A DNA stretch of 43,807 nt, filler included, from Jimgerdemannia flammicorona (GCA_003990765.1; 2 parts of 2 records of this genome joined end to end with filler, not necessarily neighbours in it); one strand, 5' to 3'. Shown: positions 3,001 to 30,967, numbered from the whole stretch's first letter. Notes: a model not told the origin generated them from the sequence alone. A program made the numbers and translations.

Positions 3001-3712
3001 TGCCCCTGCCCAAACAGTCTCCAGTGATCAGACCACAGGCACCACACCACCTCCAAAGTCTTCCAGACATCAGCACCCCAACATTCAGCTATCAGAATCC
3101 AGTCAATCCTTGTCCCTAAACCATTCACCCAGTGCATTTAGATCCTGGAGTTGCCCCACCATGTTCGGCCCATATCCCCTAAGGAGCTAAGGTTTTCCAC
3201 CTCCTTCCATACCTCTAGACTGCTACTTCTCCCACCTGCATTCCTCCCTCCATCAGTCCTATCCAGCTACAAATCTCGAACTATATTAAAATCACCACCA
3301 AGAATATTGACCCCTTCCTCCAAGAGAACACCCTCCTCCAGTAGCTCCTTAGTCTACACAATCCTCTCTCCCCTAGCCACCGGGCAGTAACAAGAGCCCA
3401 CCCTCACTGATTCCCACCCTGGCCAGTGCCATTCACCCCAGACCAAGCAATTTCCCTAGCTCTTGATTCCCTCCAAATCTCTTCTATCCTTCCTTACCAG
3501 AATTGCCACCTTTCCAAACCAAGTGGTAGCCCCACTCCATTCCCTAGTCCAATCTACCAGATCATTCTCATCCTCACACTGTACATCCTGCAGTAAAAAG
3601 AGATCAGTCTCCAATCTCTTTAGCTATGTAAAAATATTCTTATGCCGCCCAGATCCTTGAAGGCCATTCACATTGAGAGAGAAAATATTAGTTGTACTAT
3701 TTATGAGAAATA
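37..3712 (-). pseudogene. LINE-A ORF2 (endonuclease-reverse transcriptase-zinc finger) with premature stops
   Basis: ORF 1206-2933 has APGEDGLP, NWRPIMLLD, FLDQEKAYD, GVPQGDLLSPILY, FVDD and RYLGI. ORF 403-663 has CEEC...EHWLGEC. EN motifs SLNVNG, LGGDFN and TRID are readable on the minus strand at 3100-3690. Confidence 0.9.
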
Positions 3713-3739
3713 TTGTTAAAGATTAAACCTCTCCTCTAC

Positions 3740-5765
3740 AAATCTGCACTCAAGTCCTCCTGTGCCAAATCCAAGATGTATTCTGCAGCCAGTTCCTTCT
3801 TCTCAGCTCCCTGTATCTCCAACCCCTCCAGAAGTTCAACCATTGCCCCATCCTCTTTCTCCTCAAAGTCCTCCTGATACTCTCCACAGGCCTCCTGCCA
3901 GAACTACAGACCATGGCGTTCCACCCAACAATAGGCAGCCCGCTCACCAGCGACAACCACCAGCTCTGCCTTCCTCACCTCATCCACCTCATAACCCTCG
4001 TCCTCTAGTAATATTGTAAGAATCTCCATCTTCAACACCTCTGCCACTCCATCACCTCACAGAATCTGTGCTCAGTGCTCCTCCAGCATGACCCTCAGAT
4101 CCACTTCCCCCAATACCTCAGCCACAAGGTTATCTATCACCTTGCTCATCCACAGCAGATTCCCAATCTCCTTCCCTCCAGGGGTCCCCAGCCACCCTGC
4201 ATCCAGCATCATAGTATCAGTACCTACACTGGTATCCTCATTCCACTCCTCCTCTGGGACATCCACCAGCTCATCCTCACCAACCACCACCACCTGGCCC
4301 CCTTTTGCCATATCTGGGACCCCAAAGGTAACTCGCTGGGCCCCCTGCATCAGTACATCTTCTGCTGCCCCTCTCTGCCCCACCGGGCCCCTCCTGACAA
4401 GTGGGGGGGGGGGGTGCTCTCCAACTCCTCCTCCCAGACCTCAAAAGTACCATCAGCATAGAGATCTCTGCCCAGCACCTTCGCAGCTCATTCTTCCATC
4501 ACCACTGGCTCCTTTCCGGCTTCGCCAGCCCATACACTGGCTTCAATGCCTCCAGACCCCTCAGCCCCATCTACCTTCCTCTTCTCTCCTCCTATCATAC
4601 TCACCAAGAGCTCCCTCTGCCTCAAGCACCCCTGGGCCCGCTCCCACTGCCTCTTGTCAGTGTGGATACACTTCCCCTCTACAATCTCCAGGTGCATCGA
4701 CTCCTCATAGAGCTTCCAGGCCTTTGCCTGCTGTTCCACCGCACCACTCATCTCCTTCAATGCTTCTAACAAATCCTCCTCCTCCTCCTCACTCCCCTTT
4801 ACCCTCAACACCTTACAAATAAAAGCCCCCCACATCAACACTGAGGGCCAGTTACCCACCTTCCCCATGGCCTCCCTCCCTGCTAGCCAAATCCTGATAT
4901 CCACATTGCCTGTCCTAATCGTCATCCCCTCCCACACCTGGAAGCCAATATCCACCACATTCCCATACTCCACCATCACCTCCTCTATCCTCCTCCTCAT
5001 CTCCTCCTTCATCACTGTGGGCACCCCCTTCACCAGCAGCTGTACCACCCTGGGGTCCCACCTCAAATAGCGCACCATAGGGACCACTACCTCCTCAACT
5101 GCTACTCCAGCCCTCAGCATCTCTTCCAGTGGGCCTGCCTCCTCAAAGCCCACCTCAACTCCCTCCAGACCCTTCAGGAATTTCACTGAAGCTGTCCCAG
5201 CCACCTGCTTCAAGATAAGCCCCAAGACCATCCTTGCCATCATCCCTAAGCCTTGGAAGTATAGTGTCACTACAAACTCTGAGATTGATTTCTTGAGTAA
5301 TGGCGCCACTGCCAGCTTTGTTATACCATTGGCCAGATCCCCCTTCTGCATTGGAAACCCCTGCCCTGCTCTACCATTAGCCATCACATCTCTTATTTTT
5401 TCCTGATCCCTGGTCACACCCCCATCAACAGTTACACCCCCAGCCATAGCACTACCAGCCCCTATGCTCACTGCTCCCCCCTGAGGGCCACTCCCCCTTC
5501 TGACACTAGCCTTGCCCTTCTCCTCAGCAATGCCAGCCCTCGTCCCAGTAGGCCATCCACCCTCCTTCACTTTGTCAGCAAAGCTGGAGGGACCAGACCT
5601 TCCTCCAGATCCACCAGACACTTGTCTACCTCCGGAGTCTTCTCCCACCTTCAACCCTCCAAAAGCCCCCATCCCCAGTCCATAACCTCTCTCCACCTTC
5701 TGCCAGCTGAAAGCCCCAGGTCCACCTGACCCAGCATGCCCATCAGAACTCTTGCTCAATGACAT
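3740..5765 (-). pseudogene. LINE-A ORF1 (Gly-rich N-terminus, RRM-like core), frameshifted at poly-G ~4402-4414
   Basis: 425-aa ORF 4488-5765 plus downstream fragments 4072-4383 and 3750-3956, lying directly upstream of ORF2. Homologous ORF1s occur at ~25450-27480 and 34929-35830. Confidence 0.78.
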
Positions 5766-5852
5766 TCTTATAATACCTTTTCTCCAAGTTGTGTCAAAAA
5801 CTGTTGCTTGAAGTTTTGTATAATGTGAATTATACAGGAGAAAGGTGTCAAT

Positions 5853-6540
5853 TGTGGGAAGGTTCTATCTGTGGTTTCAATGTACTCAAGGTACTTATAG
5901 TTGAGTTCTTGTATCATGTCATTGATTTGGCCATAGGATAGGGTAGCAATCATTTCGCTGGTAGTAACTCAAAGATGGGGAATAAAGGTGCTATACTCAT
6001 AAAAGAGTTCTCTGTGTTTATGGGCAATGAGTTTCTGGTGTTGGGACATCTGGGTAATATCTGTATCATGATGGTGTTCAACCATATCTTCCAGGAGGCA
6101 GCCAATCTGATAGTAGCTTGAGATTTGTCTGATCTGGTGGGCCTCATTAAGTATGTTCAGGGTATTTCATTGGGCTTCCACAAAGTAAAGGGGTGCTAAG
6201 CTATGGATATTCATGAGGGGTAGAGGGGGTGTAGCTTGGTTTACAATGGCATTCCAAATGTCAGCACAGATGTGGTTGTAGATCTCAGTGGTCATATTGT
6301 ATATTTAGAAGTTGTGGTTGTTATTTGTTTTGGTTCTCTGTTTCAATGCATCTCGGTGCTCAGTATATATTGATTGGTAAGATTTCATTTATATGAATCT
6401 TGTGTTCTGTAACTTCATATTGACTCAGCTTCATGATTGAGTAGGTGATTTCCAGATTTGTTCAGAGGTTGCATGTGATTTTGGTGGCTTGTTCAGAGGG
6501 TGACATGTGATTTTAGTGGCTTAAAGGTTGTGCACTTACA
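5853..6540 (-). repeat. Gypsy-1 3' LTR, partial (interrupted by LINE-A)
   Basis: Colinear with 14447-15175. Begins TGTAAGTGCAC on the minus strand, immediately after the PPT. Confidence 0.92.
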
Positions 6541-6554
6541 ACTCTTCCCTTCTT
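6541..6554 (-). other. Polypurine tract of Gypsy-1
   Basis: Minus strand AAGAAGGGAAGAGT directly precedes the TGTAAG LTR start. Confidence 0.85.
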
Positions 6555-6969
6555 AGCTTTCAACATCCTCGTTGGGGCCTTCTAATTTTGCTCTAGTGTT
6601 GTTATACTGTTTGGAAGATCAAAAGTCCAGTAAAGTCTTTTTTTTCAGAAAGTGGCATGCTTGTAGTACAGTTGCCTAACATATTGGATTTATACATTAA
6701 AGGGTTGTATGTTCAATACTGTGTGCCAGAAGTGATTCTGACATTATTCACTGCTGGAGAATTTCCTCTAAGGAATCTTCTTAAATATCTATACCTTGTT
6801 TCCCACCAGTGGTATGGGGAGAATAGGCTGGCTTTTAGTTTTGCTATTTTTCTAGAGAGTCAGTATTCTTGGCTTGCTGCATTATTGGTTTTGTTCATGA
6901 TAATTATAATGTTCAGAAGAGTAATACATATATAGTATGTACTGATGGTATTGGAGTATTTGGATTTCA

Positions 6970-9900
6970 GTTGTTCAAGGAATCATATTCCTGAACTAAG
7001 TTGGTAGCATTCTGGAGATTGGTCTTGGGTTTCCAGGTTGCATCATGGATCAGGTAACCTTTCCATTTGACAAGATATTCTGGGTGGTTCTTGTGGCCAT
7101 ATTTGTTGAGGATCTGTTCAACTTCATACTCTTCTTGATCATTAATAATGACAGATGCAGGTGGTTCCGTGGTTCAGTTTGGGAATAGTTCATCATCATT
7201 TTCATTGTATCACTTGAGACATTGAACATTAAAGACTGAGTAAATCTTAATGGTATCTGGTAGTGCCAATTTGTAGGAAGTGGGAGAGACTTGTACAATG
7301 ACTTTGAATGGTCCAATGAACTTGCTGTTCAGCTTCATAGATGGTCTGTGCTTCAGGTTGTCTACTCGATACCCTCAGATGTCTAGTAGAACTTTTTCTC
7401 CAATGTTAAAGGTTTCTTCTCAGCAGTGTTGGTTAATATACTGTGACTGTTGTTCTTGAGCTCATGATAAATTCTCAATTGTGATCTGGCTCAGATTACA
7501 CATTTGGAGTAGGAATTCTTCAACAGCTTTGACTGTGGAGGGTTCTTCAGTAGTTCGGATAAGTATCAAAGGGGTGTTTGGGTTTTGTCCAATATTGGCG
7601 AAGAATGGGGTCATTCCCAGGGAGGCTTACTTGCTGTTATTATAGGCAAACTCAACTGCAGTCAGGTGTTCATGCCAATCATCTTGTCTGTAGGAAACAT
7701 AGTTCCTTAGCATTTGTTCTAGAGTTTGGTTCATTCTTTCAGTTTGGCCATCAGTTTCTGGGTGAAAGGCTGTGGATAGTACAAGTTTTATTCCAAGGTG
7801 TGCATAGAGGGCTTTCCAAAAATGGCTGGTGAATTTCGGGTCTCAGTCACTAACAATGATCTTAAGAAGACTATGATAGCAGAAGATGTTATCAAATAAG
7901 AGTGTGGCTATGTCTGGTGTTGTTGTAGTAGTAATAGTAGATACAAAGTGGACTTGTTTGCTGAGATAATCCACAAAGACAACAATTGCATCTTTCCCAT
8001 TTTTGGTTTGGGGTAGTTGTACAATGAAGTCCATAGAGATTTGTTCCCAATTACTGGAATAGGGTGGAGTAAGCCAGGTTTTGCTAGTGTTGAGGACTTA
8101 TTCCATTGACAGGCATTACAGGAAGTAATGTAGGTCTTGAACTGGTCTGCTATGCAGAGCCAATAGAAGTTTCAGGAGATAACTTTGTAACATTTATTAA
8201 ATCCTACATGTCCAGCTGTAGGGGCATCATGACATTCAAATAAGATAGTCCTTCAGAGGTCTTGGTTGTTTGGGACATATAGTCTGTCCTTGTAGTAGAT
8301 AGCATTGTCCTTCAGTTGGTATTGATGATACTGTATATGCTTGTCAGCATCATTACTGTTCAGGATTTCTTAGAGTACTTGAGCTTCCTTATCATCAGTA
8401 CATGCTGTGATAATTTGTTCCATGATGGAGTTTGTAACCAAGGTGAGGGTTTGGATAGCTTCTTCAATTGGTGGCCTAGAGATTGCATCAGCTACAATGT
8501 TTTTCTTGCCAGGGTGATACTGGATTTTATAGTCAAAGTTGGTGAGAACTTTTATCCATCTGGCTTGCTTTTGAGAAAGGGTAGCCTGTGTCTTGATATT
8601 GACTAGTGACTTGTTGTCAGTCAATATAGTAAAGTGTGCTCCTTCTAGATATGGTTGCCATTTGATCAGAGTGTCTATGATGGCTAGCATTTCCTTCTCA
8701 TGGGTTGTATAGTTAACTTCAGCATTATTGAACTTGCAGGAGTGGTAGGCCACAGGATGTCCTTCTTATATGAGTACTGCTCTAAGAGCTAGGTCAGAGG
8801 CATCAGTAGTAACTTCATATGGTAGGGCAGAATTTGCCACTTGAAGTACTGGAGTGGTTATCAGGGTATCTTTTAGTGCTTGAAAGGTAGTATCTTGCTC
8901 AGATCCCCAATTTACAAGATTGTTGAAGTCTTTCTCTTATTTTGTGGTCCAGGGTTGTTCTTGTTTCTTACTGTGCTTGGTCATTTGAGTGAGGGTGGTA
9001 GCAATTTTAGCAAAGTTGGCAACAAATTGCCTGTAATAGTTTGCTAATCCCAGGAATGACTGGAGGTCTTTCAGCTTCTTGGGTCTGGGCTAATCTTTGA
9101 TTGTAGAGATTTTGCTGGAGTCCACTTTAATTCCATTTGACATGACAATGTGTCCAAGGAATTGAATTTCTTTCAGGAGAAATTTGCACTTGCTGAGTTT
9201 TGCAAAGAGTCGGTTTTCTCAGAGTTTCAGTAGTACTAGTTCAAAGTATTTGAGATGTTTCTCCAGGGTTTTACTGAAGACTAGGATGTTGTCAATGTAG
9301 ACAACAATGAATTTGTCTAGATATGGATGCAGAATGGTATTCATCAGTATCTGGAAGGTTGCTGGAGCATTAGTTAAGCCAAAGGGCATAACCAGGAACT
9401 CGAAGTGTCTATAGCAAGTTCAGAAAGCTGTCTTGTAGATGTCTTCTTCTTTCATAGCAATTTGCCAATAACCATTTTGCAGATCGAAAGAGCTCATGAA
9501 TTGTGGGTTGGTGAGTCTATCAAATATTTCATCGATCCTCAGTAGTGGGCAATAGTTCTTGATGGTCTGTTCATTGAGGTCATGGTAATCAATGCACATT
9601 CTCAGGTCTCCTCCTTTCTTTATAACAAAGAGGACTAGTGCACCATAGGGTGATATACTAGGTCTGATGAATCCTTGTTCTAGGAGTTTGTCGATTTCTT
9701 TCTTGAGTGCATTGATTTCTCTTGGAGATATGTGGAAGATTGACTTGAAGGCTGGCTTGGTATCTGGAATAGTCTTGATTGCATGGTCTACTGCTTGTTT
9801 AGGAGGTAGGCCTTTTGGGAGCTTCTTCAGGAATATGTCTTGGAATTTCTAGAGTAGTGGTCTGACATAGCTGTCAACTTTGGAAAAGTCTTCTTCAGGG

Positions 9901-12900
9901 TTTTTGGGTTCTCCTTTGGATGGGTGGATGGAGATGGCAAAGAGAGGGCATTTCTTGGCTAATTTCTTGAGTTGTAGCTTGTTGATGTGAGTGATCTTTA
10001 GTCCAGGGTCACTAGAATTGAGTAGGTCTTTTTTGCCTTGTAGTTTGAAGTTATGGTGTCCTTTCTTGATGGTCAGAGAATGGTTTATCCAATCAATCAT
10101 GGGGTTCTCTTATTTCAACCATGGGGTTCCAAGGATGATTTCATTGTTAGGGAGTGGTATGATCTGGAGGGTAATATGTACTTGGTAGTCTCTAATTCGG
10201 AAGGGTAGATTGCAGACTTCTTTGCTAATAACATGTGAGGTTCCATCAGCTGTGGTAACTGCTTGAGTTTGTTTTACTGGAGAGGTGAAGACCTTGAGTC
10301 TATTGGCTGTTTCTTTATTAATGAAGTTGCCTGAGGCACCACTGTCTATCATAATCTTGACAGGTGCTCAGTTGACAAAAGCTTTAAGTATAAGTAGTTT
10401 GTCTGATCCAATGGTGGTGATTTTAGTTGTAGGAGCTTTCCTTCTATTGGTTCTTCTTTGTGCCAGTTCGTTGACACAAGAGAAGCAATCATCAATCATT
10501 TGGGAAGAGTACATTTCAATGCCATGAGGGCATCGGCCACTTGGTACATATCTGTCTTCGATCTTCTTATAGAATTATTCTTCTCTGCTCATGGTAGGTT
10601 GGACTGGGGCCTTGTTCAATGAGCCAAATCCTTTGGATCCTCAGATGGTAGGTAGTAGTTCAGGGACTTCCTTGACTGTCAGGGTTGACTCAATTTTTTT
10701 GAATAGGATCTGGGTGATACAGAAACCTATAGATATCTTGAAGGGTGTCCAACTATGGTTTCAGATGAGGACAATAATTTCATCTGTATAATCCTCATCA
10801 ATGACTCCTCCTTCTACTGAGGGTCCCTTCAATGCTAGGCTGCTGCGACAGCATATTCTTCCAACATATCCTTCAGGAATTTGGATACTGATTCCTGTAT
10901 AGACTTGCTTGACTTCTCAGTTGGAAACTGTAGCTTCTTCAGCTGCATACAGGTCATATCCAGCTGCTTTTTGACTTCCTTTGGTTGGGGCCTTAGCAGT
11001 TTGTTTTAACTTGACAAAGTCCAGTGTTCTGGTGGTCAGGTTATTGAGGTGGTGCAGAGTGGTAACAGTTGCTCATGTTGCTGTTCGGGGTTTTCAGTTG
11101 GGGCAGGCACTGGCCATGTGCCCTGTCTTTCAGCAATAGAAGTATGCTCTGCTTCTTCGAAGTTCATTTCTTTCACCTTCAGTGAGTTTCTTGAAGGTAC
11201 TTGGCTGGATAGATTCATGATTTCTGGGTGTCCATGAGGTGGATGTGGAGGGAGCTCAGAATGCTTCATACTTGGGTTCTTCTTTCTTAGTCCAAGTCTT
11301 TTCCTTATTGTTGAATTGTCTTCAGGGCAGAATTGGTCTAGCTGTTAAGATTTACTTGACCATAGTCTTGATTCTTGCCAGGCACTATTGTTGGTAATCA
11401 CAACCAACTGGGCAGTCTTGTTCTCGGGTTTTTCTAGTAAGCCATTTAGGCAGGGCATTGAATAAATGGTCTGCTCTTGTACCATTTCATGCTTCATCAT
11501 TGGTGATATATTCTAGACCAACAGTGTTCAGGAGTGACTTGAGTTTTATACAGAAGGTTTCAAATTCTTCTTTGCCATATACATCAAATTTGAGGTTGTG
11601 GAGTTTTACTCGAGATTCGGCAATCATGGTTTCACTGTGGTATTGAGCAATTATGAGTTGTTTGAGTCCAGGGGCCACAGGGTGGGCTCCATATCCTGAG
11701 GTATTATTTGCTATATTCTGTGCAACTACTGTAGGTCGGGTGTCCCATGTGAGGGGTTTTTCAGGAAGGGTTTGCCACCATTCTTCAGCAGGTCCTTGGA
11801 AGAATGTAACAACTTGGCAGACATAGGCTGTAGTAGTAGCAAAGAGTTGTTCCAGAGTGTGGTCTTGATTGTTTGTCAGAACATGGTCAGCAACTTGCTC
11901 ATTGGTCTATTGATTGGCTTTGAAGTTAGTGTCTACTATACTAATGAAGCTTTGGACTTCTTGTATAGTACCATTGAAGGTAGGTAGACTCAGATTTTTG
12001 GTAGGTCAGGTCTGTTCAGCTAGGGCAGTAATGATTGCTGCCATTATCACTACCTGGGCTGTGAGGTCTAGAATCTGTTGGTTCACCATGTTATTTACTG
12101 GAGATGGTTGGACTGCTGGTAGTGGTGTTACTGGTACTACTTGAGGTACTGGTGCAGAGTGTGAGGGTGTTTTTTGAGTCTGTGTAAGTTATTGGAGTAG
12201 TAGTTGTGGGTCTGGAGTAAGGGCTTGATAGATAGCTGTTTGTTGCTATATAGCTGTATTCTGTCCTGATAGAAGTACGTCTCCTTCGATAGTGTATCTG
12301 GGATCGAATTTACTGAGATACTCCTCCTCTTCTTCAGTTTGGTCTCCATGTAATTGGGTTTGCTTGGTGTCAAAGTAGACAGAATCAGTTGTATATCTGA
12401 TTTCAGATGGACTTAATTCAAAGTCAAGTTCAGGTTCAGTATTGGTTTAGGATTCAGGTAGGGCTGTAGCAGAGCCTGCTTCTAGTTCAGGGCCAGGTAG
12501 TTGATGAAGGGTTTCTCTTGCTTCTTCTTTAAGAATATAGCAGGCCTTGCTGTTCTAGAATCAGTAGTATAATGTAGTCTTGGTCCTGGTGCAGTGAAAA
12601 TTGGTAGAGTTGAGCCACTTAGCTATAGAGGCTTGGGCTTCATGAGGAACTAAGGCTAGAAAGACTGCTGATGGTTGTCCTAGGTCACTCAGATTTATAG
12701 AGCTGACAAAACTCTTGTTGAGAAGAGTAAAGAAGGCTTCAATAAGACCTTCTTCATCTTGACTTGTTGGGTGTAGAGCAAGGAGTTTGGTGAATAGGGT
12801 TTCACCTATTTGCTGATTTAACTGAAGTATTTCTTTCTTCAAATGAAGTTTGTCCCACTTGTTGCAGGTATGGAGGTCAAATTGTTCTTGTATGTCAGGT

Positions 12901-13013
12901 TCAATTCTCTCCAGATTATCAGATGGTTCAGGATAAATTCCAGTTCAGAGGTTGGGCTTTATACTAACTTATAGGAATTTGCAGAGGGGTTTTATAGTGG
13001 GATGAGGAAGCAT
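6970..13013 (-). pseudogene. Gypsy-1 gag-dUTPase-protease-RT-RNaseH-integrase-chromodomain polyprotein, many stops
   Basis: ATG at 13013; degenerate knuckle YFYC*KTGHMASAC ~11100-11145; IDSGASGNF (10110-10352); MCIDY and YIDNILVFS in RT; NYTTHEKEMLAI and NIVADAISR (8370-8753); MDFIVQLP (7843-8034); chromodomain YEVEQIL..YLVKWKGY..ATW at ~6990-7135. Confidence 0.88.
10620..11030 (-). pseudogene. dut: dUTPase domain of Gypsy-1, between gag and protease
   Basis: Manual translation gives LDFVKL..AKAPTKGSQKAAGYDL..TGISIQIPEGYVGRICCRSSLA..GGVIDEDYTDEI..ITQIL..GSKGFGS, covering all five trimeric dUTPase motifs. Confidence 0.9.
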
Positions 13014-13037
13014 CTTGAAGCGGAATTGGATTATAAA

Positions 13038-13049
13038 CCACTGCTACCA
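13038..13049 (-). other. Primer-binding site of Gypsy-1 (initiator tRNA-Met type)
   Basis: TGGTAGCAGTGG, 3 nt inside the 5' LTR end. Identical to the Gypsy-2 PBS. Confidence 0.8.
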
Positions 13050-13495
13050 AGTTATAAGAGGATTGCTTTTTAGGGTAACTGTTACATAGTTCTAGAAGGG
13101 TTTTCTAGAAGTTCTGGATGTTCTGGAAGACTATTTTCTTATGGTCAAGATCAATTTCATATAGAGTACATCCTCTATACTTATTGATTTCAAGATCAGG
13201 TTAATGTCTCAACCAAAGTCCCCTTTTGGACTAGTTCTGGATGTTCAGGATTTTCCATATTTCAGGAAGTTCAAGAAACTAAAACCAGTTTAGTTGAATT
13301 GGCATATTGCTGCAGACAATACCCAATTAGGAAATTTTGTGATAGGGTTAGGAGTGGGACCTAATGGAGAGCGGATTTACTTAAAAGTAGTTTGTGGGTT
13401 ATTAAATAGATTTATTTGCTATTTATGATATTGCTATACTAGGAGTAGTTGTATCAAGGTATATTGTGGGAAAGTGCTCAGGAGTTGTGTTTGGA

Positions 13496-13568
13496 TTGTT
13501 CAAGTCTGTTCAAGTCTGTTCAAGTCTGTTCAAGTCTGTTTAAGTCTATTTAAGTCTATTTAAGTCTG
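13496..13568. repeat. 10-bp tandem repeat (GTTCAAGTCT variants, ~7 copies) inside the Gypsy-1 LTR
   Basis: Directly visible: gttcaagtct/gtttaagtct/atttaagtct units. Confidence 0.9.
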
Positions 13569-13791
13569 AGATTCTGAGGTCTGGGGGAGGGGGTATTTAT
13601 ACTAATGAGAGGCTATCTGGACTATGCTAAATATGGATGTAGCACTAAGTGCCTTGCTGAGTCAGAATGCAGTCATGTAGTAGAAGTGTGATCTGACATA
13701 TCAAAGAGATCATCTGACTGCTGAGTCAGTTCACAGTCACATTATATGAGGCTAATCTAACTATACTATGACTGCTAAGCTATTTATAGGT

Positions 13792-14888
13792 TTAGACACT
13801 ATCTGGGTAGTCTTTGGTGATATCACCATTGATGATATCATCTCTGATGAAGTAGTCATCTAGGAAAAGTAGTTTGCAGATTCCTTCTCCTTATTTGCTA
13901 AGGTAATAATATATTGGAACTTTATCACTATCTCACAGAATAGCATCATCTGTCTCATATGCTGGATAAGGTGTTGGTGGGCAGAGGAGAGGTGCATTGC
14001 CTTCACTTTCATCAGATTCACTGTCTGCATACCTTTTATAGGTTATAGCACTATGAGTTACTGGGTTGTAGTAAGCTGGTGGCTGTGGTTCATATCATTT
14101 GTACTCAGGTAGTGGAGTGGTTGATTCAATCTCGAGGGTTGTCTGGAGGTACAGGTTGTGTTCTCTGGTCTCTTCATTATAGTTGAAGTAATCGAGGGTG
14201 AATGTGGGTTAGTATTCATATCAGTAGTCATTGTCCCAATAAGTCTCATAGATAGTTATGAACTATTGTAAGTTCATTAGTAAGGTTGGTAGTATGATCA
14301 GAGTTGGCAGAGATCCTTAGCTAGAGGTCATGTCAGTATCAGAGGAATCATTGTCTTCTGCTTCATCTTCATCGAACCAGATTATATCATAGACATCCTT
14401 TATAGCATATCTGACTTGAGGCATTTGCAGGATATGGTCATCCAGGTGTGGGAAGGTTCTGTCTGTGGTTTCAATGTACTCAAGGTACTTGTGGTTGAGT
14501 TCTTGTATTATGTTGTCAATTTGGCCATAGATAGGGTAGCAACTATTTCGCTAGTAGTAACTCGAAGATGGAGAATAAAGGTACTGTACTCATAGAAGAG
14601 TTCTCTGTATTTGTGGGCAATGAGTTTCTGGTGTTGGGACATCTGAATAATATCTGTATTATGATGGTGTTCAACCATATCTTCCAGGAGGTGGCTGATC
14701 TAGTAGTAGCTTGAGATTTGTCCAATCTGGTAGGCCTCATTAAGCATGTTCAGAGTGTTCCATCGGACTTCCATGAAGTAAAGGGGTACTAAGCTATAGA
14801 TATTTATGAGGGGTAGAGGGGGTGTGGCTTGATTGACAATAACATTCCAAATGTCAGCGCAGATGCAGTTATAGATCTTGGTGGTCAT
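13792..14888 (-). pseudogene. LTR-embedded ORF of Gypsy-1 (~365 aa, acidic, unknown function)
   Basis: Reads MTTKIYNCICADIWN...DITKDYPDSV* with one 1-nt deletion near 14530. Every stop is explicable as a C-to-T/G-to-A change, and several are sense codons in the other two LTR copies. Confidence 0.75.
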
Positions 14889-15175
14889 ATTGTGTATTTG
14901 GAAGTTGTGGTTGTTATTTGTTTTAGTTCTCTGTTTCAATGTATCTCAGTACTCAGTATATATGCATTTGGTCCTGATTGGTAAGATTCTGTTTGTATGA
15001 ATCTTATGTTCTATAACTTCATATTGACTCAGCTTTGTGTATTATGACTTTGGTTTGACTCAGCTTCATGATTGAGCAGGTGATTTCCAGATTTGTTCAG
15101 AGGTCATATGTGATTTCAGTGGCTTATTCAGAGGGTGACATGTGATTTCGGTGGCTTGGAGGTTGTGTGCTTATA

Positions 15176-15432
15176 TCTTCTCTACTAAAGTCTCCTCTAC
15201 TAAAGTCCTCTCTGCTGAAGTCTCCTCTATCAAAGTCTTCTCTATCAAAGCTCTCTCTGTCAAAGCCCTCTCTGCCAAAGTTCTCTCTACTGAAACCTTC
15301 TCTATCAAAGCCCTCTCTACTAAAACTCTCTCTGCTGAAATTCTCTCTACTGAAGTCCTCTTTACTGAAGTCTCCTCTGCTGAAGTTCTCTCTACTAAAG
15401 TCCTCTTTACTGAGATTCTCTTTGTCAAAATC
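15176..15432. repeat. 15-bp tandem repeat (~17 copies, consensus ~CTCTCTACTAAAGTC)
   Basis: Directly visible periodicity. Explains the spurious SLLKS-repeat ORFs. Confidence 0.9.
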
Positions 15433-15652: not shown

Positions 15653-15696
15653 TTTTGCAGATAGAGGTCTCAGTAGTGTATCAGAGACTGGCTGTG

Positions 15697-16099
15697 TGTA
15701 ATGGTTCTAGTTTCTAAATGAGGAAGCGACTTAATTCTGGTAGTCCTAAGTAGCTTGAAGAGATACTAAGGATTCAAGTGTTCTCAAAGGATTTCTGGGA
15801 GAAAATATTCTGAGCTTTATTCATGAGAACAAAGGGAATATTTATACAAGATCTGAAAGAAGGATCTGGAAGGATCTGAGAAATCAAAGGAAAATGCCAA
15901 GAGGAAAGTTCTCGGCAAAGATGACAAATGATGACAAATAAAGTTCTACAAGTTTCCAGGACATTCAGTGACTAACTAAATAAGTACTAGTTAATGCTCG
16001 GTGCCAAGAAAGGATTTCTAAGCATTTGGAAAGTACCAGAAGGTCATAGAATATTGGAGAAAGACAAAGAAAAGGAATAAACTATGCTAAAATATTACA
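15697..16099 (-). repeat. Gypsy-2 3' LTR
   Basis: About 15 substitutions versus 21326-21728 by manual comparison. PPT AAGGAGGGAGAGA is adjacent on the minus strand. Confidence 0.97.
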
Positions 16100-16412
16100 T
16101 CTCTCCCTCCTTAAGAATCAACATCCTTGTTGAATTCTCAAAGTTACACATGATAAACAATAAGACTAAAAGAAACTTCAAATTAAATATACCGACTCAT
16201 TGGCAAGGATTGGCCATCCTTGTATAAGGCAAGGGCCAAAGTATCATCTTGATTGGATGAGAACTGGTTCGAACCTCATTGGTTGCAGGATTTATAGGGT
16301 TCTCCTGTATCTCTTGCTTCTGATGCTGTATCCCTTAGAGAGCCCCGATGCGTAATGTGCCTGATCAGCACAGTAGGTCATCTACTATTCAAGGGGAGAA
16401 CCTCATGGGCAG

Positions 16413-19400
16413 TCAATGAGTTCCTTTTTGCTCGAACTCTTGGATGAGGTCTTGGGAGTTCTTGAGATTGGCAGCAGGTTCCCAGGTGGCGTCATATTCA
16501 GGGTAACCCATCCACTTGACTAGGTATTCTGTGCGACGGTATCAGACTCATTTGTCTAAGATTTTCTTGACTTCATACTTGATGTAATCTTCAACTATAA
16601 CTGGTGCTGATAGCATCGGAATTCGGCCAGGGTATAGGGGTGACTGGTTCCAGGTCTTGAGTTGTGACATATGGAATACTGGATGTATACACATGGTTGT
16701 TGGCAAGTTGAGATAGTAAGACCAGGTAGAGACTTGCTCGGTGATCTCGAAGGGTCTAAGGTACTTGGGCTGGAATTTGGCTGACTGGCGGTTGACTTGA
16801 GATTGAGCCTTGATGTTGTTGGCTTTGAGTAGAACCATATCGCCAATGTTGTATATAACATCTCGCCGCTTCTTATCTGTATACTTAGCTTGATGTTGCT
16901 GAGCCTTTTGCAGGTTCGTAGTGGCGATCTTGAGAAGGGAATCCATTTTGTCGATAAGGTTCTGGGCTGTGGGGACTTGTGTGTAACTGGATTGCTGGAA
17001 TTGGACTAGACTTGCAGGGGTCTCGGGGTTTTGACCGTGAAGTAGCTGAAATGGGGAAAGACCCGTTGATGATTGGTTGGCATTATTGTAGGCGAACTCG
17101 GCATAAGTCAGATAGTGGTCCCAATCATCTTGCTCATAGGACACGTAGTTTCTGAGCATTTGTTCAAGTGTTCTGTTCATTCGCTCTGTCTGTCCATCAG
17201 TTTGAGGATAGAAGGCCATAGACATAGCAATTTGGGTTCCCAGGGTCTTGAAAAGTGCTTGCCAGAAGTGACTTGTGAACTTGGGGTCGCGGTCACTGAT
17301 AATTACTCAGGGAAGTCCATAATGGCAGAAGACAGTCTTGAAGAAGATTCTTGCAATTTCTGGGGCAGTGGCATTGGTTGTGGTTGGCTCGGCGATTGTA
17401 ATCTTGGTGAGACAGTCCACAAACACAACAATAGCATCATAGCCTGTTTTGGTTCGTGGGAGTTATACAATGAAGTCCATTGTGACTTGTTCGAACTTCT
17501 TGGTTAGAATTGACAAGGGTTGTAGAAGACCGGCAGGTGCTTGGTTGCTTGACTTATTTCTTTGGCAAAGATTGCAGCTTTGGACATACTCCTTAATTTC
17601 CTTGAGCATGTTTGGCCAGTAGTAGTCTCGTTGGATATTCTTGATGGTCTTCTCAGTTCCAAGGTGGCCAGTTAGTGGGGAGTCATGGTGTTCATGGAGA
17701 ATCTTGTACCATAGTTCAGGGTTGGCAGGAATATATACTTTGTTTTGATAGTATACGAGGTTGTCCTTGATGGTGTACTTTTCCTTGAATTCCTTGGTGT
17801 TCCTTTGTAGAACCAGAGAGTCTTGTTCGTATGGCTTCTTGATCTGATTGAGGAATTCAGGTGCCATGGTGACTTGTAAAATTGCGGCAAGGTCAGGTCT
17901 CCTTGAAAGTACATCTGGTACAACTAGAGTTTTGCCAGACTTATAGATGATGTTTGGGATAAAGGTCTGAAGCAGTTGACTCCACTTGGCTTATTGGCGA
18001 GAAAGGGTTGGTTGAGTGTTGATATACTGAAGGAATCTGTGATCAGTGATTACATCGAACTCAACTCCTTCTAGATAGTGTCACCAGGTCTTGAGGGCAT
18101 GTATGATTGCCAGGAGTTCCTTTTCATGAGTAGCCAGCTTTTGTTCTGCTGGGGACAATTTTCTTGACTCAAAGGCAATAGGTCAGTGTCCTTGACCATC
18201 ATCTTGAGAAATGACTGCACCAATGGCAAAGTTAGATACATCTATAGTGACCGTGAACTTTAAGTTTGGGTCTATGTTTCTAAGGACAGGTGCATGGGTC
18301 AGGCAGTTCTTGAGTTCTTGAAAAGCTTGTTGACAGAAGGCATCCCAGATGTAGGGGACATAGAGGTCAGAGTTGGGTTTCTTTCGCAGGAGGTTTGTCA
18401 GAGATTCTGCGATGCCAGAGAAGTTCTTGACAAATCGATGGTAGTATCCAGCTAGACCAAGGAAGGACCTGAGTTCAGTGAGGTTTGCTGGTACAGGCCA
18501 CTGTTCAATGGCTTGTATTTTCCTTGGGTCTACTTGAATTCCTTTGGCTGATACAATGTGTCTAAGATATTTGACTTGTTCCTTGAAAAATTCACATTTC
18601 TTGAGCTTTGCATAGAGCTTGTTCTCGTGGAGGATCTTGAGGACTTGTTCGATATGCTTGAGGTGTTCTTCTTCAGTGCTACTGAAGATCAGGATGTCAT
18701 CAATGTACACGAGTACAAAGATATAAAGCTGGTCCTTAAAGACAGTTTGCATGAGGTCTTGAAAGGTTGCTGGCACATTGGTGAGACCAAAGGCCATGAC
18801 TAGAAACTCGTAGAGTCCAAAGGGTGTCATGAAGGCAGTCTTGGGTATGTCTTCTGGCTTGATTTGAATTTGGTGATACCCAGAGGTGAGATCAATCTTG
18901 GTGAAGTACTTTGCATTCTTGAGAGCATTAATGATTTGATCTATGAGCGGTAGTGGATAGTGGTTCTTGACAGTGATCTTGTTGAGTGCTCGGTAGTCTA
19001 TGCACATTCGCAGAGTATTATCCTTTTTCTTGACAAATAGGACTGGGGAGCCAAAGGGTGACTTGCTTGGCTGAATGGCTCCTCATTCAATGATTTTATT
19101 GAGTTCCTTCTTGACTGCTTCAATTTCGAGTGGAGACATACGGTACATTTTCTTCTTAGGTATAGCTGCATCAGGTACCAACTTGATTTCGTGGTCATGG
19201 TCTCTTGAAGGTGGTAGACCAGGTAGTTTGTCTGGGAAGACATCCTTGTACTTATTCAGCAGTAACTTAATGCTTTCATCAATTGATAGCTTCTTGTCTT
19301 CTTTCTTTGGTCGGATCAGTGCCACAAAGGTGCAGGTAGCTTTCTTGAGGGCCTTCTTGAACTGGATTGCTGAAAGGGTAGCAATTGGGGTTCTCATCTG

Positions 19401-21257
19401 AGTCTTGTCTGGCTTGATGGTAATATTGACTCCATCTTGAATCAAGGTGACTTCATTCTTGGTCCAATCAATCTGAGGGTTGTGCCATGTAAGCCAGGGT
19501 TTGCCTAGGATCAGGTCATGGTCTCCTAGTGGTGCTACCTCGAAATCTAAATGTTCCCAGTACTTCTGGATCTTGAGGGGAAGTTTAGCAGCAATTGAGT
19601 CAATTGGTAAGGTGGTGCCATCCGCAGTGACAACTCCACCATTCTTGCCAGCTGGTTTGGTGAGAATCTTGAGCTTGTCAATGAGGTTCTTGTTGATGAA
19701 GTTCCCAACAGCTCCGCTGTCTATGAGAACATCTAGTTCTTGTCCCTTGACTAGATCTTTGAAAATGAGCATTGAATTGGCTCGGTTCTCAGCTATGCTT
19801 GCAACTTTGTCAGTGCTGCCAAAGCCTTTCTGATCTCACTTAGTGGAAGACAGCTTGGTAACTTCTTTGACAACTGGTAGGGTGGCTCACTCCAGGATGA
19901 GCTGTGCAATTCTATCTCCTTCATTGATGGTATATGGCTGGTTCTTGTGGTTGACTAGCAGAACTTGCATTTCACCTTGGAAGTCAGAGTCTATGACTCC
20001 AGCACTAACATCCAATGAGTGCTTGAAGCTGAGACCAGATCTTGGTGCAATTCTTACATAATATTCCTTGGGGATTTCGACTGAAAGGCCAGTTGGAATG
20101 AGCCTTCTTTCATGTGCCGGAATAGTGACTTGTTGTACTGCTTGAAGGTCCAAACCGATGGCTCCTTCTGACTGTGCTTGAGGGATCTGAGCCTTGGGGT
20201 TGACTCGCATAAAATTGAGTACAACTTCTTGTTCAACTGGTTGACCTTGAGTGTCTTTGGACAGGACCAGGATCCTCTTTGGTTCCGCAGTTTTCTTGGG
20301 ACATTTGGTTGCAATGTGACCAGGCTGATGGCAAAAAAAGCAGGCTCCAGCCTTCTTGAGGCGCTCCTTTTCCTCAGGTGTAAGCTTGCCTTTCTTGCTC
20401 TTGTCGATGGTGTCTAGGTCCATGGGGGCAGGTCCAACAGTTCTGACTTTGGGTTCCTCCCTTCTGTGGTTGTTGTTGTTGTTGAAAGGCGGTCTCTTCT
20501 GTTCAAAGTGGTAACCATAGGTGATGACATCAAACCTATCAGCAATTTTCATTGCTGTGTCTAGGTCCTTGGGTTCTTCTAGTTCAACATGAACTCAGGT
20601 TTGACCTTTCAAACCTCAGATGTACTTGTCAACCTTCTCGTCTTCAGTGACATGTGGTAATTCTAGCAGGATTGACAGGAATTGTGTATTGTATGCTTGC
20701 ACAGACTTGAGTTGTTTGATGTTTGCCAGACAGTCTCGTGCAGCCTTGGTGCTGTTGACTGGTTCGAATTGGCCTTGAATTGCATCAGAGAATTCGCCCC
20801 AGGTCTTGATTCGGCCAGAGAATCTGGTATTCTGGACATGATTTCACCACCAGATTGCAGCATTCCCTCAGAGAAGTGTGGCAGCAAATTGGACTAGTGT
20901 TGTTTCTTCCAAATTGGTCAGTTCTCTATATTGCTCCAATTGGAAAAGCTAGGCGTTGGTAGACAGTCCTCCTCTTTGACCATCAAAGGTGTTGGGCTTC
21001 TGAGGCTTGATAGTGACTGCTGTCAGATGTATTGATGTCAGTGGAGGTACGGAGGTATGAGCAGAGGCCTTGCTTTCCTTTCTTTCTATGCATTCTTGAA
21101 GTTGGGCAATCTGAGCTAATGTAGTTTGCAAAAGACTCTCGATGGACCCGGTTGACTGGGTGGGGATTGGCTGTTCCTCTTCTTTTTCTTGCTGATGGTA
21201 AGAGGCATTGCCTGGACCGTAGGTACTGTATGAAGGATTCCACCCATTGTCCTCCAT
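16413..21257 (-). pseudogene. Gypsy-2 single-frame gag-dUTPase-PR-RT-RH-IN-chromodomain polyprotein (1614 codons, nonsense-interrupted)
   Basis: ORFs 20949-21257, 19887-20552 (CFFCHQPGHIATKC), 19083-19772 (LIDSGAVGNF), 18183-19007 (YIDDILIF), 17463-17867 (HH..GH..CNLC) and 16548-17225 (QTDGQTER) are all in one frame. Chromodomain YEVKKIL..YLVKWMGY..ATWEP ends at TGA 16413-16415. Confidence 0.95.
19808..20220 (-). pseudogene. dut: dUTPase domain of Gypsy-2, between zinc knuckle and protease
   Basis: Motifs GAIGLDL, RIAPRSGL, GVIDSDFQGE, GDRIAQL and KGFGST. Confidence 0.95.
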
Positions 21258-21311
21258 AGTGTTATAACTGATATCTTGAGAGGTGTCTTGATAAGGCTAG
21301 ATGTAACTTCA

Positions 21312-21323
21312 CCACTGCTACCA
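21312..21323 (-). other. Primer-binding site of Gypsy-2 (initiator tRNA-Met type)
   Basis: TGGTAGCAGTGG, 2 nt from the 5' LTR. Confidence 0.85.
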
Positions 21324-21325
21324 AG

Positions 21326-21728
21326 TGTAATAGTTCTAGTTTCTAAATGAGGAAGCGACTTAATTCTGGTGGTCCTAAGTAGCTCAAAGAGATACTAAGG
21401 ATTCAAGTATTCTCGAAGGATTTCTGGGAGAAAATATTCTGAGCTTTATTCATGAGAACAAAGGGGATATTTATACAAGATCTGAAAGAAGGATCCAGAA
21501 GGATCTGAGAAATCAAAGGAAAATGCCAAAAGGAAAGTTCTCGGCAAAGATGACAAATGATGACAAATAAAGTTCTACAAGTTTCCAGGACATTCAGTGA
21601 CTAACTAAATAAGTACTAGTTAATGCTCAGTACCAAGAAAGGATTTCTAAGTATTTGGAAAGTACCAGAAGGTCATAGAATATTGGAGAAAGACAAAGAA
21701 AAGGAATAAACTACGCTAAAATGTTACA
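21326..21728 (-). repeat. Gypsy-2 5' LTR
   Basis: Direct repeat of 15697-16099, followed by TSD CTGTG. Confidence 0.97.
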
Positions 21729-22519: not shown

Positions 22520-25500
22520 ATACTCAATCCCATCTCTATATCACCAGGCCCCAAGGTACCTCTCCTTTATCTCTCTGCCAGCAAATTCTGATATAGTGAG
22601 CCCCATCTACTACTCTCCACCAGAAGCCCTTATATCTCATTCACCCTCTATTAGGAAGCCCAACTAAGGACAGTAAATCTCCAGTCACTCTTCTTGGTAA
22701 GCACTACATCTCCCAGACCTTCTTCATTAGGGGAACCCAGCTGCCACCTCTCAGTTCTACTGCTCTCTTCAGTCACTATACTTGTAGACAATATAGCCTC
22801 TTTGAGAAGTCAACCAGCCCAAGGCCCCCTCCAGTCACTGGTAATAACAAGATTTCCCAGCTAATCTGACTCCTCTGCCCAGCCCAGATCCAATCCTTTG
22901 TCAGCTTCAATAGCCTCTTCACTACCCAGGCTGGAAAGTCCAGATGATATACCAAATACCATAACTTCAGTAGCCAGTAAATATTCAAAATTGCAATGCA
23001 CCCTGCTAAAGACAGGTGGTGGTCTCCCCAATCTCTCAGGACCTCTCTCCAGATGGCCACTCATTGCTCTCACCAAATGTGTGTCAGAACTGACCTATAC
23101 ATAGAGAGATAAATACCCAAGTATCTCACAGCCTCTCCAGCAGAGACAATTGTTCCAATGACATTCCCTCCCACCAGACCATTACCTAACACTATTATTT
23201 CATACTTGTACCAGTTAAGTTTAGCCCCAGAGTATACCTCATACCACTCCACTGTTTTCCAGAGTTCCTCAACATCAGCAATCAACCCCAGACTGACTAC
23301 CATATCATCTGCAAAGGCTCTAACCTTCCAAAAAATACTGAATATGGAGAGCTCCACTATCTTCCACCAAATCCTATTTATCAATGGCTCTAAAGACAGA
23401 GCATACAAAATCAGGGACAGGGGGTCTCTCTGGGATATACTCCTCTCCAGAGAGAATACTACCCCTCTATGTCTATTGCACATAAGTACTACTTGACTTC
23501 TTTCCAGTAGACTGATCATTGTCTCTTGAAACTGCTGAGAGATATTAATCCTGTCCAGCACCTTTACTAGCCAGACTTACTATATATAGTCATAAGCTTT
23601 CTCCTGATCTAAGAAGACTAGTCTCCCATCTAGTCTACAGGCTTGGGCCCCTTCAATAACATCATACACTCAGGCCATACTATCCCTAATGAGCTGACTC
23701 CCTACAAATCCTCGCTGCTCCTCATCCAAAACTTGCTGAGCTATCTTCTGCAGTCTTGCCACCACTATCTTAGTGACCAACTTCCTGTCTATGTCCAGAA
23801 GCATGATGGGCTGCCAATTCTTCCAGTCCTCTCTTCAACTCTTGTTCTTATAAAGTAGTGCCACAAGCCCCAGATCTTGCTCCCCCACCTACCTCCCTGA
23901 CTGTAATACCAAATCACACATTACTATTATCTCTCCCAGTACTCTAGATACTCTCAGCATCTTCTTCCAAAAGTCCCAGGGCAGTCCATCCTCATCAGGT
24001 ACCATGCCCAGTATAGTCATGGCAAGAATCTGGTGAATCTCCTCCTCCTGAACTGATATATATTACCAAATTATCCAGCCTATCTACTTGTAGTAGGTAC
24101 CAATCCTTCAAAATATATGTAATAGTAGTAGCTATTGCCCCACTCTCTTCTTCACTCTACAAACTGCTCTACCTCTCCTTGAGTGAGCCCAGAATGTCTT
24201 ATAAACTATGCACCAGTAGCCCATCTGAATTCAGTACCCCCTCCCACCTCTGCCTCACCCTCCTTGTCTGCAGAATCCTTGAAAGATGTTTAGACAGCCT
24301 CTCCCCCTCCTCAAGCCCCTGCTAGTATAATCAGATAGCCAAACTCTACATTCACATCTTCTCTTCTTCTCTCAACACCTGTCATAGCTCATTGACCTCT
24401 ATCTTAACCCAGCTCAACTGCCAGTTCTCTACCCCCTCCAGGGTCAAAATATTAGCCCAATTTTCCAAAAGTTGAGCCAGTCTAGCAGAAGCCCAGTTCA
24501 CTCTCCTTCTCCTCTGTCTGCCTGCTACCTCTCCTGCCTCTCTTCAATAAACCCTAGCAGCCACCTTTAACCTTACCTACTGAACACCAATTGTGACACC
24601 CTCTTGTACCTAACTCTCTACCTTCTACTGAATGTCCTCTACCCACTTATTCCACAATGTCTTCTCAGCTAACAAAGAGGAATTTAGGTGCCAATGTCTA
24701 GGCCCATCCCCACTCTCTCCAAAATGTCTCTATCTCAATAGCCCCTAATGATCAGACTATGGACACCACTCAGCTTCTAGTGACTTCCAAACATCTGGCC
24801 CCCAGCAATCTGCCATCAGCACCTAGTCAATCTTAGTCTCTAGACCATTTATCTAGTATATATATACTCATCTATCTCTCCAGAATCTCCTTCCAGTATC
24901 TATCAGAAAGCCCAGCCTTTCTATATCCTCTCATACTACCAGGTTTCTGCTCTTACCCTCAGCACCCCTCTCTCCATCAGTCCTATCCACCAGTACATCT
25001 CAGACCATTTTAAAGTCCCCTCCAAGAATATCCACTCTGGCCTCCATAAGGACTCCACTTTCCCTAAGATTCTCTACCCACTCCACCTACTTACTCTGTA
25101 CAGTAGGGCAGTAGCATGAACCCATAGTAACTAGCTCCCAACCAGGTTGACACTACTCTCCCCACACCAGCTGGTCCTCCCAGCCCTCTATATCCTGTAT
25201 CTCTCCTTTGTCTCTCTGAACTAAGATCTCAACCTTGCCCTTCTATACTGCCACACCTCTCCATTCTCTCATCTACTCTATTCTATCCAAGTCATCCTCA
25301 CATCTGATATTCTATAATAGAAAAAGATCAGCCTCCAATCTCTTCATCTATGTAAAAATATTCCATCTTCATACTGATTCCCACAGTCAATTCATATTCA
25401 CATTTATAGAGAAAATATTTATTGTACTATTCATAAGGAATAATGTTAAGTATCATGCTCCTTCTCTACAAATCCACATTTATCCTCTCCTGTACTAAGT

Positions 25501-29956: not shown

Positions 29957-30967
29957 TGTAAGTGCACAACCTCCAAGCCACCAAAATCACATGTCACTCT
30001 CTGAATAAATTTGGAAATCATATGCAAGATCATGAAGCTGAGTCAAACTGAAGTCACAGAAAACAAAGCTGAGTCAAACTGAAGTCACAGAAAACAAAGC
30101 TGAGTCAACTCGAAGTCACGGAATACAAGATTTACACAAATGGAGCCTTACCAATTAGGACCAAATGCATATATACCAAGCACTTAGACACATTGAAACG
30201 GAGAACTACAATAAATCAAATAAACAATTACAACTCTTGAATATATACACAACCATGACCACTGAGATCTACAACTATATCTGTACTGACATTTGAAACA
30301 CCATTGTCAACCAGGCCACACCTCCCCTACCCCTTATAAATATCCATAGTCTGGCACCTCTCTACTTTATGGAAGCCTGATAGAACACCCTGAACATGCT
30401 CAGTGAAGCCCACTAAATCAGACAAATCTCAAGCTACTACCAGATTGGCTGCCTCCTAGAAGATATGGTCAACTACCACCATGATACAGACATTATCCAG
30501 ATGTCTCAACATCAGAAACTCATTGCCTGCAAACACCAAGAACTCTTTTATGAGTATAGTACTGCTATTCCCTGCCTCTGAGTCACTACTGCTGAAATGG
30601 TTGCCACTTTGACCTATGGCCAAATTGACAACATGGTACAAGAACTCAACCAGAAGCACCTCAAGTATGCCCAGACCTCTGACAGACCCTTCCCCCATCC
30701 AGATGACCACATTCTGCAAATGCCCTGTTGAATATATTATGAAAGACATCTATGATATAATCCAGTTTGATATTGATGAAGCAGAAGATAATGATCCCTC
30801 CAATACTGACATGACCTCCAGCCAAGGACCCCTGCCAGCCCTGATCACCCCACCAATCTTACCAATGAACTTACAACAGTTCATAACTACCTACAAGACC
30901 TATTGGGATAATGACCAATGGCACGAGTACCAACCTGCATTCACCCCTGACTACTTCAACTATAATG
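29957..30967 (+). repeat. Partial solo LTR of the Gypsy-1 family, carrying the first ~240 codons of the LTR ORF (ATG 30255)
   Basis: Starts TGTAAGTGCACAACC. Reverse-complement match to ~14172-15175. Confidence 0.9.

Follow-up and report, generated by a model that had tools for sequence, protein, structure and literature searches.

A probable accessory gene, now decayed, within the long terminal repeats of a dUTPase-bearing Ty3/gypsy chromovirus

To our knowledge, a protein-coding gene that lies wholly inside U3, the unique 3′ region of a long terminal repeat (LTR), is otherwise a retroviral trait, the example being sag of mouse mammary tumor virus (MMTV). This U3 open reading frame (ORF) is present in the genomic RNA at the 3′ end only and needs its own or a subgenomic mRNA, and its product, Sag, is a type II membrane glycoprotein. 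Accessory genes that partly overlap U3 include lentiviral nef and foamy-virus bel2/bet, and the foamy-virus transactivator Tas, which is produced from a separate internal promoter, possesses an acidic activation domain. In this study, we focus on an ORF of 365 codons within the LTR of a Ty3/gypsy retrotransposon, located in a 43,807-nucleotide stretch of DNA from Jimgerdemannia flammicorona (GCA_003990765.1; two parts of two records joined end to end with filler), which as a whole is referred to as the window and whose numbering is used throughout. We consider it fairly likely that this ORF is a real LTR-borne accessory gene of the retrotransposon family, now decayed, a judgement that does not extend to its function.

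Additional ORFs (aORFs) of LTR retrotransposons include the env-like ORFs of the plant elements Athila and Bagy2, the antisense ORFs of Grande, RIRE2 and Retand, and that of Boty from Botrytis, and, as far as the available part of the source describes them, they lie in the internal region, where they either precede gag or follow pol ahead of the 3′ LTR (PMC7264820). Full-text literature searches returned no paper on an LTR-borne gene in a fungal Ty3/gypsy element, an absence that is no proof that none exists, and the phrase "LTR ORF" retrieved almost only papers on MMTV.

The reading frame, its copies and its intact relatives

The ORF is read on the minus strand from an ATG at 14888 to a TAA at 13794-13792, within an LTR spanning 15175-13053, which confirms the sense frame of about 365 codons in a 2.1-kb LTR reported by a previous, sequence-only reading of this DNA. 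The window contains three copies, here named A, B and C:

13792-14888, minus strand: copy B of the putative accessory ORF, from ATG 14888 to TAA 13794-13792, 365 codons with 8 internal stops
14530-14531, minus strand: frame-shifting 1-nucleotide (nt) deletion private to copy B (alignment column 778, gap in B alone)
5853-6540, minus strand: 3′ LTR, first 688 nt only, severed at 5853/5852 by an inserted element
5853-6295, minus strand: copy A of the ORF, codons 1-147, ATG at 6295, 2 stops, no frameshift
29957-30967, plus strand: third LTR copy, a fragment whose homology stops at 30967, where it adjoins an unrelated repeat at 30968-31179
30255-30967, plus strand: copy C of the ORF, codons 1-237, ATG at 30255, 5 stops within codons 1-157 and a 2-nt gap near 30743

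The straight reading of copy B from its ATG breaks at about 120 codons, and a one-base shift at 14531/14530 restores the frame as far as the C-terminus DDYFIRDDIINGDITKDYPDSV. With this shift, the ORF frame holds 8 stops, compared with 16 and 44 in the remaining two sense frames. First-order Markov simulations of these 1095 nt, 3000 in number, averaged 26.5 stops per frame (standard deviation 5.0), with a minimum of 9 across the three frames of any simulation. The low stop count of the ORF frame is more than chance.

A comparison of stop columns in an alignment of the three copies, covering all sense frames, adds to this picture. A stop begins at 67 alignment columns in any copy or sense frame, and 32 of these are common to two or three copies; 30 of the 32 fall in the two non-ORF sense frames, including 8 that are common to all three copies within the first 148 codons. 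The ORF frame has no stop column common to all copies and two columns shared by A and C with B intact, namely Trp43, which reads TGA in A and TAG in C and therefore reflects two distinct changes, and Arg109, a CGA codon that reads TGA in both. The lesions are complementary, and the ORF frame of the common ancestor was thus open over at least 237 codons, with the other frames closed. Beyond its last stop, copy C continues for 80 codons without interruption (codons 158-237), and codons 238-365 are single-copy in the window, being represented by copy B. The ORF is present in 3 of 3 LTR copies of the window, which stem from at least two insertions, and contigs at least 80% alike cover it in 4 of the 4 sequencing runs compared, contig depth giving no copy number.

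Several details of the sequence-only reading need adjustment in this light. The frame was said to be shared by three LTR copies, and all three do carry the start, but copy A retains only 147 and copy C only 237 of the 365 codons. The lesions were described as largely complementary, which holds in that no stop is common to all copies; the Trp43 and Arg109 columns are stopped in both A and C. The 1-nt deletions said to fall at different positions are in reality one 1-nt deletion in B and one 2-nt gap in C, with none in A.

Intact relatives were found in metagenomic protein collections. A word-based search of 5.8 billion proteins with the C-terminal 249 residues of copy B, in which stops were written as X, gave a single match, P0002, a protein of 247 amino acids (aa) that has no stop and is 56% identical to copy B over 245 residues. 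A HMMER profile built from all ORF pieces and searched against 1.84 billion representatives gave exactly two matches, P0002 and P0003. P0002 occupies profile positions 115-363, corresponds in the pairwise alignment to codons 121-365 of copy B, and ends in YPDSI where copy B ends in YPDSV. P0003 (128 aa) occupies profile positions 1-128, begins at the same Met with MTTEIYN as in the window copies, and is 86% identical to copy A, 77% to copy B (codons 1-124), and 77% to copy C. The source of each protein is a metagenome contig about 1 kb long, and neither shares its 90% cluster with another member. A search with P0003 at near lengths returned only itself, and a search with P0002 at shorter lengths returned nothing; two scans of metagenome contigs, one with the C-terminal and one with the N-terminal alignment, yielded no confirmed relative DNA, and scans of viral contigs with P0002 and P0003 yielded no locus (the P0003 scan reported one matching stretch, with 0 loci returned). 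The view that the ancestral ORF was intact is thus borne out twice, by the lack of a stop common to all copies and by the intactness of P0002 and P0003.

These data also bear on the idea that the frame is open by chance, on a U3 strand that is rich in A and C, poor in G and never translated, with the database proteins representing gene-caller artefacts on short contigs. The sense strand of the ORF region is indeed skewed (A 0.34, C 0.25, T 0.26, G 0.15), a second sense frame of copy B has just 16 stops, and family, fold and expression support are all absent, yet copy B even after decay has fewer stops than the simulated minimum of 9, no ancestral stop can be inferred, and the other frames hold their 30 shared stop columns within 237 codons. 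P0002, moreover, is open over 247 codons at 56% identity and has the same end. We therefore regard a chance frame as highly improbable.

The direction of decay can be read from the same comparisons. Positions occupied by Arg in P0003 are Cys, His, Gln or stop in the window copies, and every stop in codons 1-128 falls on an R, W or Q of P0003. Changes of C>T or G>A alone can explain 16 of the 18 amino acid differences from P0003 in copy A, 23 of 24 in copy B, and 22 of 30 in copy C. Between copy B and P0002, 38 of the 103 differences and 4 of the 7 stops are explicable in this way; when such differences count as identities, the two are 73% identical, leaving about 27% real divergence over 241 aligned codons, and the alignment requires only two indels, of 2 codons each, with the frame kept. 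At 14319-14317, where copy B has the stop TAA, the covering family contigs have CAA (28 in sequencing run X1, 2 in X2, 2 in X5, and 6 in X6), and these make up nearly all of the depth there. The two LTRs of one element (A and B) differ by 52 transitions and only 2 transversions in 444 sites. The transitions in these repeats may result from deamination of methylated CpG or from a process resembling repeat-induced point mutation. The ratio of observed to expected CpG is 0.10-0.12 in three elements of the window, compared with 0.95 in adjacent host-like DNA (31200-35000). Repeats decayed by C>T change can be read back through the comparison of copies together with environmental sequence.

The case for constraint is that lineages whose proteins differ by about 27% have retained the frame, the start and the stop, with in-frame indels. 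Several observations weigh against reading the ORF as a genuine gene. P0002 and P0003 are fragments, and no full-length intact copy has been seen; because a protein database holds open frames only, the two are also an ascertained sample. Three stops of copy B find no simple origin in P0002, one lying on a Q that is unreachable by one transition and two on D and N, and the stop at 14319-14317 is the only one of copy B's 8 stops among the 40 of 586 contig differences listed. Transitions by codon position number 41/22/68 between B and C and 17/8/27 between A and B; the latter, as the LTR pair of one element, diverged neutrally and shows an equal third-position excess, so that the excess reflects mutational context and not selection, and the codon-position test was rejected as a sign of selection because of this confounding. 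Transversions by codon position (8/6/9) show no third-position excess, and their density in the ORF (11/444) is no lower than in the part of the upstream LTR that aligns well (4/198). An apparent threefold rarity of transversions in the ORF (11/444 versus 24/281) vanished once a misaligned repeat block was removed. Codon-level selection is not demonstrable in the window.

The carrier chromovirus and its LTR

The carrier of copies A and B spans 5853-15175 on the minus strand and is a Ty3/gypsy chromovirus with a dUTPase. A Pfam scan of 5853-15186 in all three frames of the minus strand, stops being written as X, identified in order RVP_2, RVT_1 (1e-29), RT_RNaseH, Integrase_H2C2, rve, SH3_Tf2-1, and Chromo (5e-12). 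The pol order is thus protease, reverse transcriptase, RNase H and integrase, with the chromodomain after the integrase, as expected of a chromovirus, and a dUTPase domain (PF00692, E 1.4e-28) lies between the CCHC knuckle and the protease. This domain order, along with the CCHC knuckle ahead of the dUTPase, defines the element as a dUTPase-bearing chromovirus and agrees with the chromodomain Ty3/gypsy carrier proposed by the sequence-only reading. Its main features are as follows:

6541-13040, minus strand: decayed internal region, comprising gag with a CCHC knuckle, dUTPase, protease, reverse transcriptase, RNase H, integrase, SH3 and chromodomain
13053-15175, minus strand: 5′ LTR, about 2123 bp, with TATAAG at 15175 (TGTAAG in the other two copies) and CTTATA at 13053
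13041-13049, minus strand: primer-binding site TGGTAGCAG, 3 nt beyond the 5′ LTR end at 13053
13781-13788, minus strand: first TATAAATA box, 4 nt past the ORF stop codon
13594-13601, minus strand: second TATAAATA box (the TATA box named earlier), 191 nt past the ORF stop codon
13497-13568, minus strand: 10-nt tandem array of 7.2 copies, adjoining the second TATA box downstream, with a copy number that differs among family contigs

The alignment of the three LTR copies begins at TGTAAGTGCACAACC (TATAAG in copy B), that is, at 15175 in B, at 6540 in A, and at 29957 in C on the plus strand. A single C>T change sets the inner end of the 5′ LTR, CTTATA, apart from the inverted counterpart of TGTAAG, and a family contig has CTTACA there. 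At 13055 and 15173, contigs from the public runs X2, X5 and X6 are interrupted, their loose ends being unlike one another; a contig ends in GTGCACTTACA at such a break, and a contig with GGAGGTTGTGCACTTACA runs on into unrelated letters. The sequence TGGTAGCAG, which we take to base-pair with initiator tRNA-Met at its 3′ end, has two matches in the window, each bordering a 5′ LTR at its inner edge; the second, at 21323-21315, lies beside an LTR at 21325-21728. A purine-rich tract directly upstream of 6540, within 30 nt before the 3′ LTR, occupies the position of the polypurine tract. The LTR length of about 2123 bp is derived from the agreement of the TGTAAG...CTTACA termini, the primer-binding site and the loose contig ends. 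The ORF takes up LTR positions of about 288-1384 of these 2123, and an AATAAA occurs at 13416. As judged from the positions of the TATAAATA boxes, both of which follow its stop, the ORF lies wholly in U3; its earlier assignment to U3, upstream of the box at 13594-13601, is consistent with this, as the ORF ends before both boxes.

A nearly intact sister chromovirus at 15696-21728 on the minus strand has a single frame, interrupted by few stops, that encodes Ty3 capsid/gag, dUTPase, protease, reverse transcriptase, RNase H, integrase, SH3 and chromodomain, and its LTRs of 404 bp are 96% identical to each other. The two elements have an equal domain order and the same primer-binding site TGGTAGCAG, and one 416-nt stretch of pol is 69% identical between them, but the sister has 404-bp instead of 2123-bp LTRs and a shorter gag leader, and nothing in it matches the ORF. 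As the short-LTR sister contains no match to the ORF, the gene would be an accessory gain of one lineage.

An LTR five times the sister's length (2123 versus 404 bp), in which selection is not measurable within the window, could also have grown by capture, the ORF then being a transduced piece of a host gene or mobile element that is carried as passive cargo and is open in young copies only since the capture was recent. Gene transduction by LTR retrotransposons does occur, and according to the available part of the source the transduced genes are usually found in one or few copies (PMC7264820), in contrast to an ORF found in every LTR copy of the window and in at least two insertions. Nor does a donor present itself, as no host or other homologue was found among the 1.84 billion representatives beyond the two LTR-type fragments, and Pfam gave nothing; furthermore, frame, start and stop have been kept across the 27% protein divergence with in-frame indels only. 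The sequence-only reading had itself named, as an outcome that would overturn it, a separate nested element or host-gene fragment absent from most LTRs of the family. What was found instead is an ORF in all three window LTR copies, two intact environmental relatives and no other match among the 1.84 billion. Capture is accordingly an unlikely explanation, albeit less so than a chance frame, and a genuine accessory gene of the element family is the reading we prefer.

Other observations concern the surroundings of the carrier and its copies. From about 12950 to 12070 on the minus strand, about 655 codons separate the primer-binding site from the CCHC knuckle, compared with about 350 in the sister element; the roughly 300 extra codons are largely open, have no Pfam match, and may represent an N-terminal gag extension or a second ORF. 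Directly adjoining the 5′ LTR on its outer side, positions 15179-15411 form a tandem array with units of 15/45 nt, the 15-mer being present in 15.5 copies. Run X2 includes a contig of 161 nt that is identical to window positions 15075-15235, spanning the junction of LTR and flank, so that the organism of X2 probably carries the same insertion. None of the listed runs is on record as RNA. In runs X2 and X5, which are only guessed to be RNA, contig depth over 13064-13533, past the second TATA box, is far above that of U3 and the internal region, but depth cannot rank the parts of a stretch, so that this gives no more than a lead for mapping R/U5. From 5852 downward, the sequence shares homology with the end of a different element, found again at 22601-27563. 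This other retroelement is thus present as two copies (881-5852 and 22601-27563) that are 67% identical, one of them inserted in the 3′ LTR studied here; RVT_1 is the sole domain in its scanned ORFs, C is strongly enriched on its plus strand (GC skew about -0.5), and it contains a Gly-rich ORF of 425 aa at 4488-5765. Two intact ORFs lie in DNA with normal CpG content, at 31690-33030 (minus strand) and 33139-34221 (plus strand); one of these two encodes a 360-aa F-box-like/leucine-rich-repeat protein whose nearest clusters in the ESM Atlas are fungal, with Mucoromycota first, and the other a protein of 446 aa with no family.

Predicted protein and proposed expression

The predicted protein appears to consist of two unlike parts. 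Its N-terminal portion of about 160 residues is modelled as helical and is Arg-rich in the intact relative, and the C-terminal portion of about 200 residues is very acidic, rich in Tyr and Pro, and probably disordered. P0002 has an isoelectric point of 4.05, with 46 D/E against 10 K/R, 23 Tyr and 24 Pro, and its last 47 residues combine a net charge of -12 with many F, Y, I and L.

Judged by these sequence searches, the protein is an orphan that belongs to no known family, with no fold, domain or motif that would point to a function. Pfam gave the ORF protein no family, the single row up to E 10 being at chance level, and a PDB profile search returned 0 matches. In the ESM Atlas, the recognition score of 2273 falls below the mark of 2300, and the best rows (0.91-0.93) are unnamed clusters, a closterovirus coat protein and a phage translation repressor, none of them usable. 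AlphaFold2 modelled the N-terminal 128 aa as five helices over residues 1-121 at low confidence (predicted local distance difference test, pLDDT, 49.7; shallow alignment) and found no confident structure for the C-terminal 247 aa (pLDDT 30.6, again from a shallow alignment). No DNA-binding domain was identified by the Pfam, PDB profile and Atlas searches or in the N-terminal helical model at that pLDDT.

The sequence-only reading had named an anti-silencing factor, a transactivator and a trafficking factor as possible roles and had noted, as speculation, that the motifs PPAY and LPEY resemble WW-binding late domains. In a budding or trafficking adaptor, such motifs might recruit the endosomal sorting complexes required for transport (ESCRT) or ubiquitin ligases. 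Copy B does read EPQPPAYYNP and TPLPEY, and a PPTPYPAY stretch is conserved between B and P0002, but the intact P0002 reads QQPLAYYNP and TPLSEY at the corresponding places, that is, PLAY and LSEY, so that neither PPxY nor LPEY is kept and the motif proposal is not supported. Pfam found no transmembrane or Gag-like domain either. Among the alternatives considered here, a late-domain adaptor is the least probable.

The working proposal is that the accessory gene is expressed from the LTR itself. The following elements lie upstream of its start codon:

14889-15175, minus strand: U3 leader upstream of the ATG, 287 nt, repeat-rich, a candidate ORF promoter
15096-15157, minus strand: 32-nt direct repeat, two copies, in the U3 leader
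15064-15055 and 15033-15024, minus strand: GCTGAGTCAA repeats in the U3 leader
14963-14956, minus strand: ATATATAC, some 70 nt ahead of the ATG and retained by each of the three copies

The sequence GCTGAGTCAA is found 6 times in the window, where 0.16 matches would be expected, and every one lies in the three LTR copies (1 in A, 2 in B, and 3 in C); TGAGTCA, contained in the leader repeats, is a site of the Gcn4/AP-1 type. According to this proposal, a short mRNA would start from a promoter that the TGAGTCA-containing repeats and ATATATAC form within the LTR's first 290 nt, and would end at the LTR's own poly(A) signal, whereby every LTR would constitute a self-contained transcription unit. 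Such an LTR-internal mRNA is plausible from the arrangement of motifs; alternatively, the 3′ LTR could give rise to a subgenomic RNA that is translated, in the manner of retroviral U3 genes. The protein would act in trans for the element. In the window, C>T/G>A hypermutation together with small indels has inactivated all three copies since their insertion. We also considered a splice reading, in which the LTR start T-GTAAGT resembles a fungal 5′ splice site, and dropped it, as nothing supports it.

As to function, the protein might be a transcriptional activator or adaptor with its acidic-aromatic tail as an activation domain, a suggestion that we hold only tentatively. Equally tentative is the wider notion of the LTR as an autonomous gene, with its own promoter, the 365-codon ORF and the LTR poly(A) signal, for a trans factor that either activates the LTR or antagonizes host silencing and that could be supplied by both LTRs and by solo LTRs. 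Both the promoter and the activator role are inferred from short motifs and composition. Were the protein functional, LTRs, including solo LTRs, could be protein-coding units, a retrotransposon lineage would have gained a regulator independently of retroviruses, and pipelines that mask LTRs as non-coding would hide a class of orphan proteins. Should the LTR prove to be an autonomous gene, its product would found a new protein family and would be, retroviruses aside, the first U3-encoded accessory protein to be described from a retrotransposon.

Comparison with known systems

The closest parallel is MMTV sag, likewise a sense-strand ORF some hundreds of codons long that is contained entirely within U3 and hence present in both LTRs. 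The Pfam and PDB profile searches revealed no sequence similarity between the two, however, and the carrier here is a fungal-type Ty3/gypsy element without env. The products also differ, in that the protein described here is acidic and probably disordered, unlike the membrane glycoprotein Sag. Tas and the products of nef and bel2/bet are accessory proteins that act in trans and are encoded in U3 or at the 3′ end. Foamy-virus Tas provides the model for our working proposal, although no homology of Tas, nef, bel2 or bet to the ORF was found; in addition, the ORF lies entirely inside the LTR, whereas theirs overlap it in part.

With the aORFs of LTR retrotransposons, the ORF shares its status as an extra frame besides gag and pol that has no homologue outside the element and is conserved open between diverged lineages (P0002, 247 codons). 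It differs from them in its location, which is within the LTR itself, in a fungal-type chromovirus, and not in the internal region to which the available part of the source assigns aORFs (PMC7264820). In terms of described systems, the locus may therefore be viewed as an additional ORF that is placed in U3, as in MMTV, and that would encode a new orphan family.

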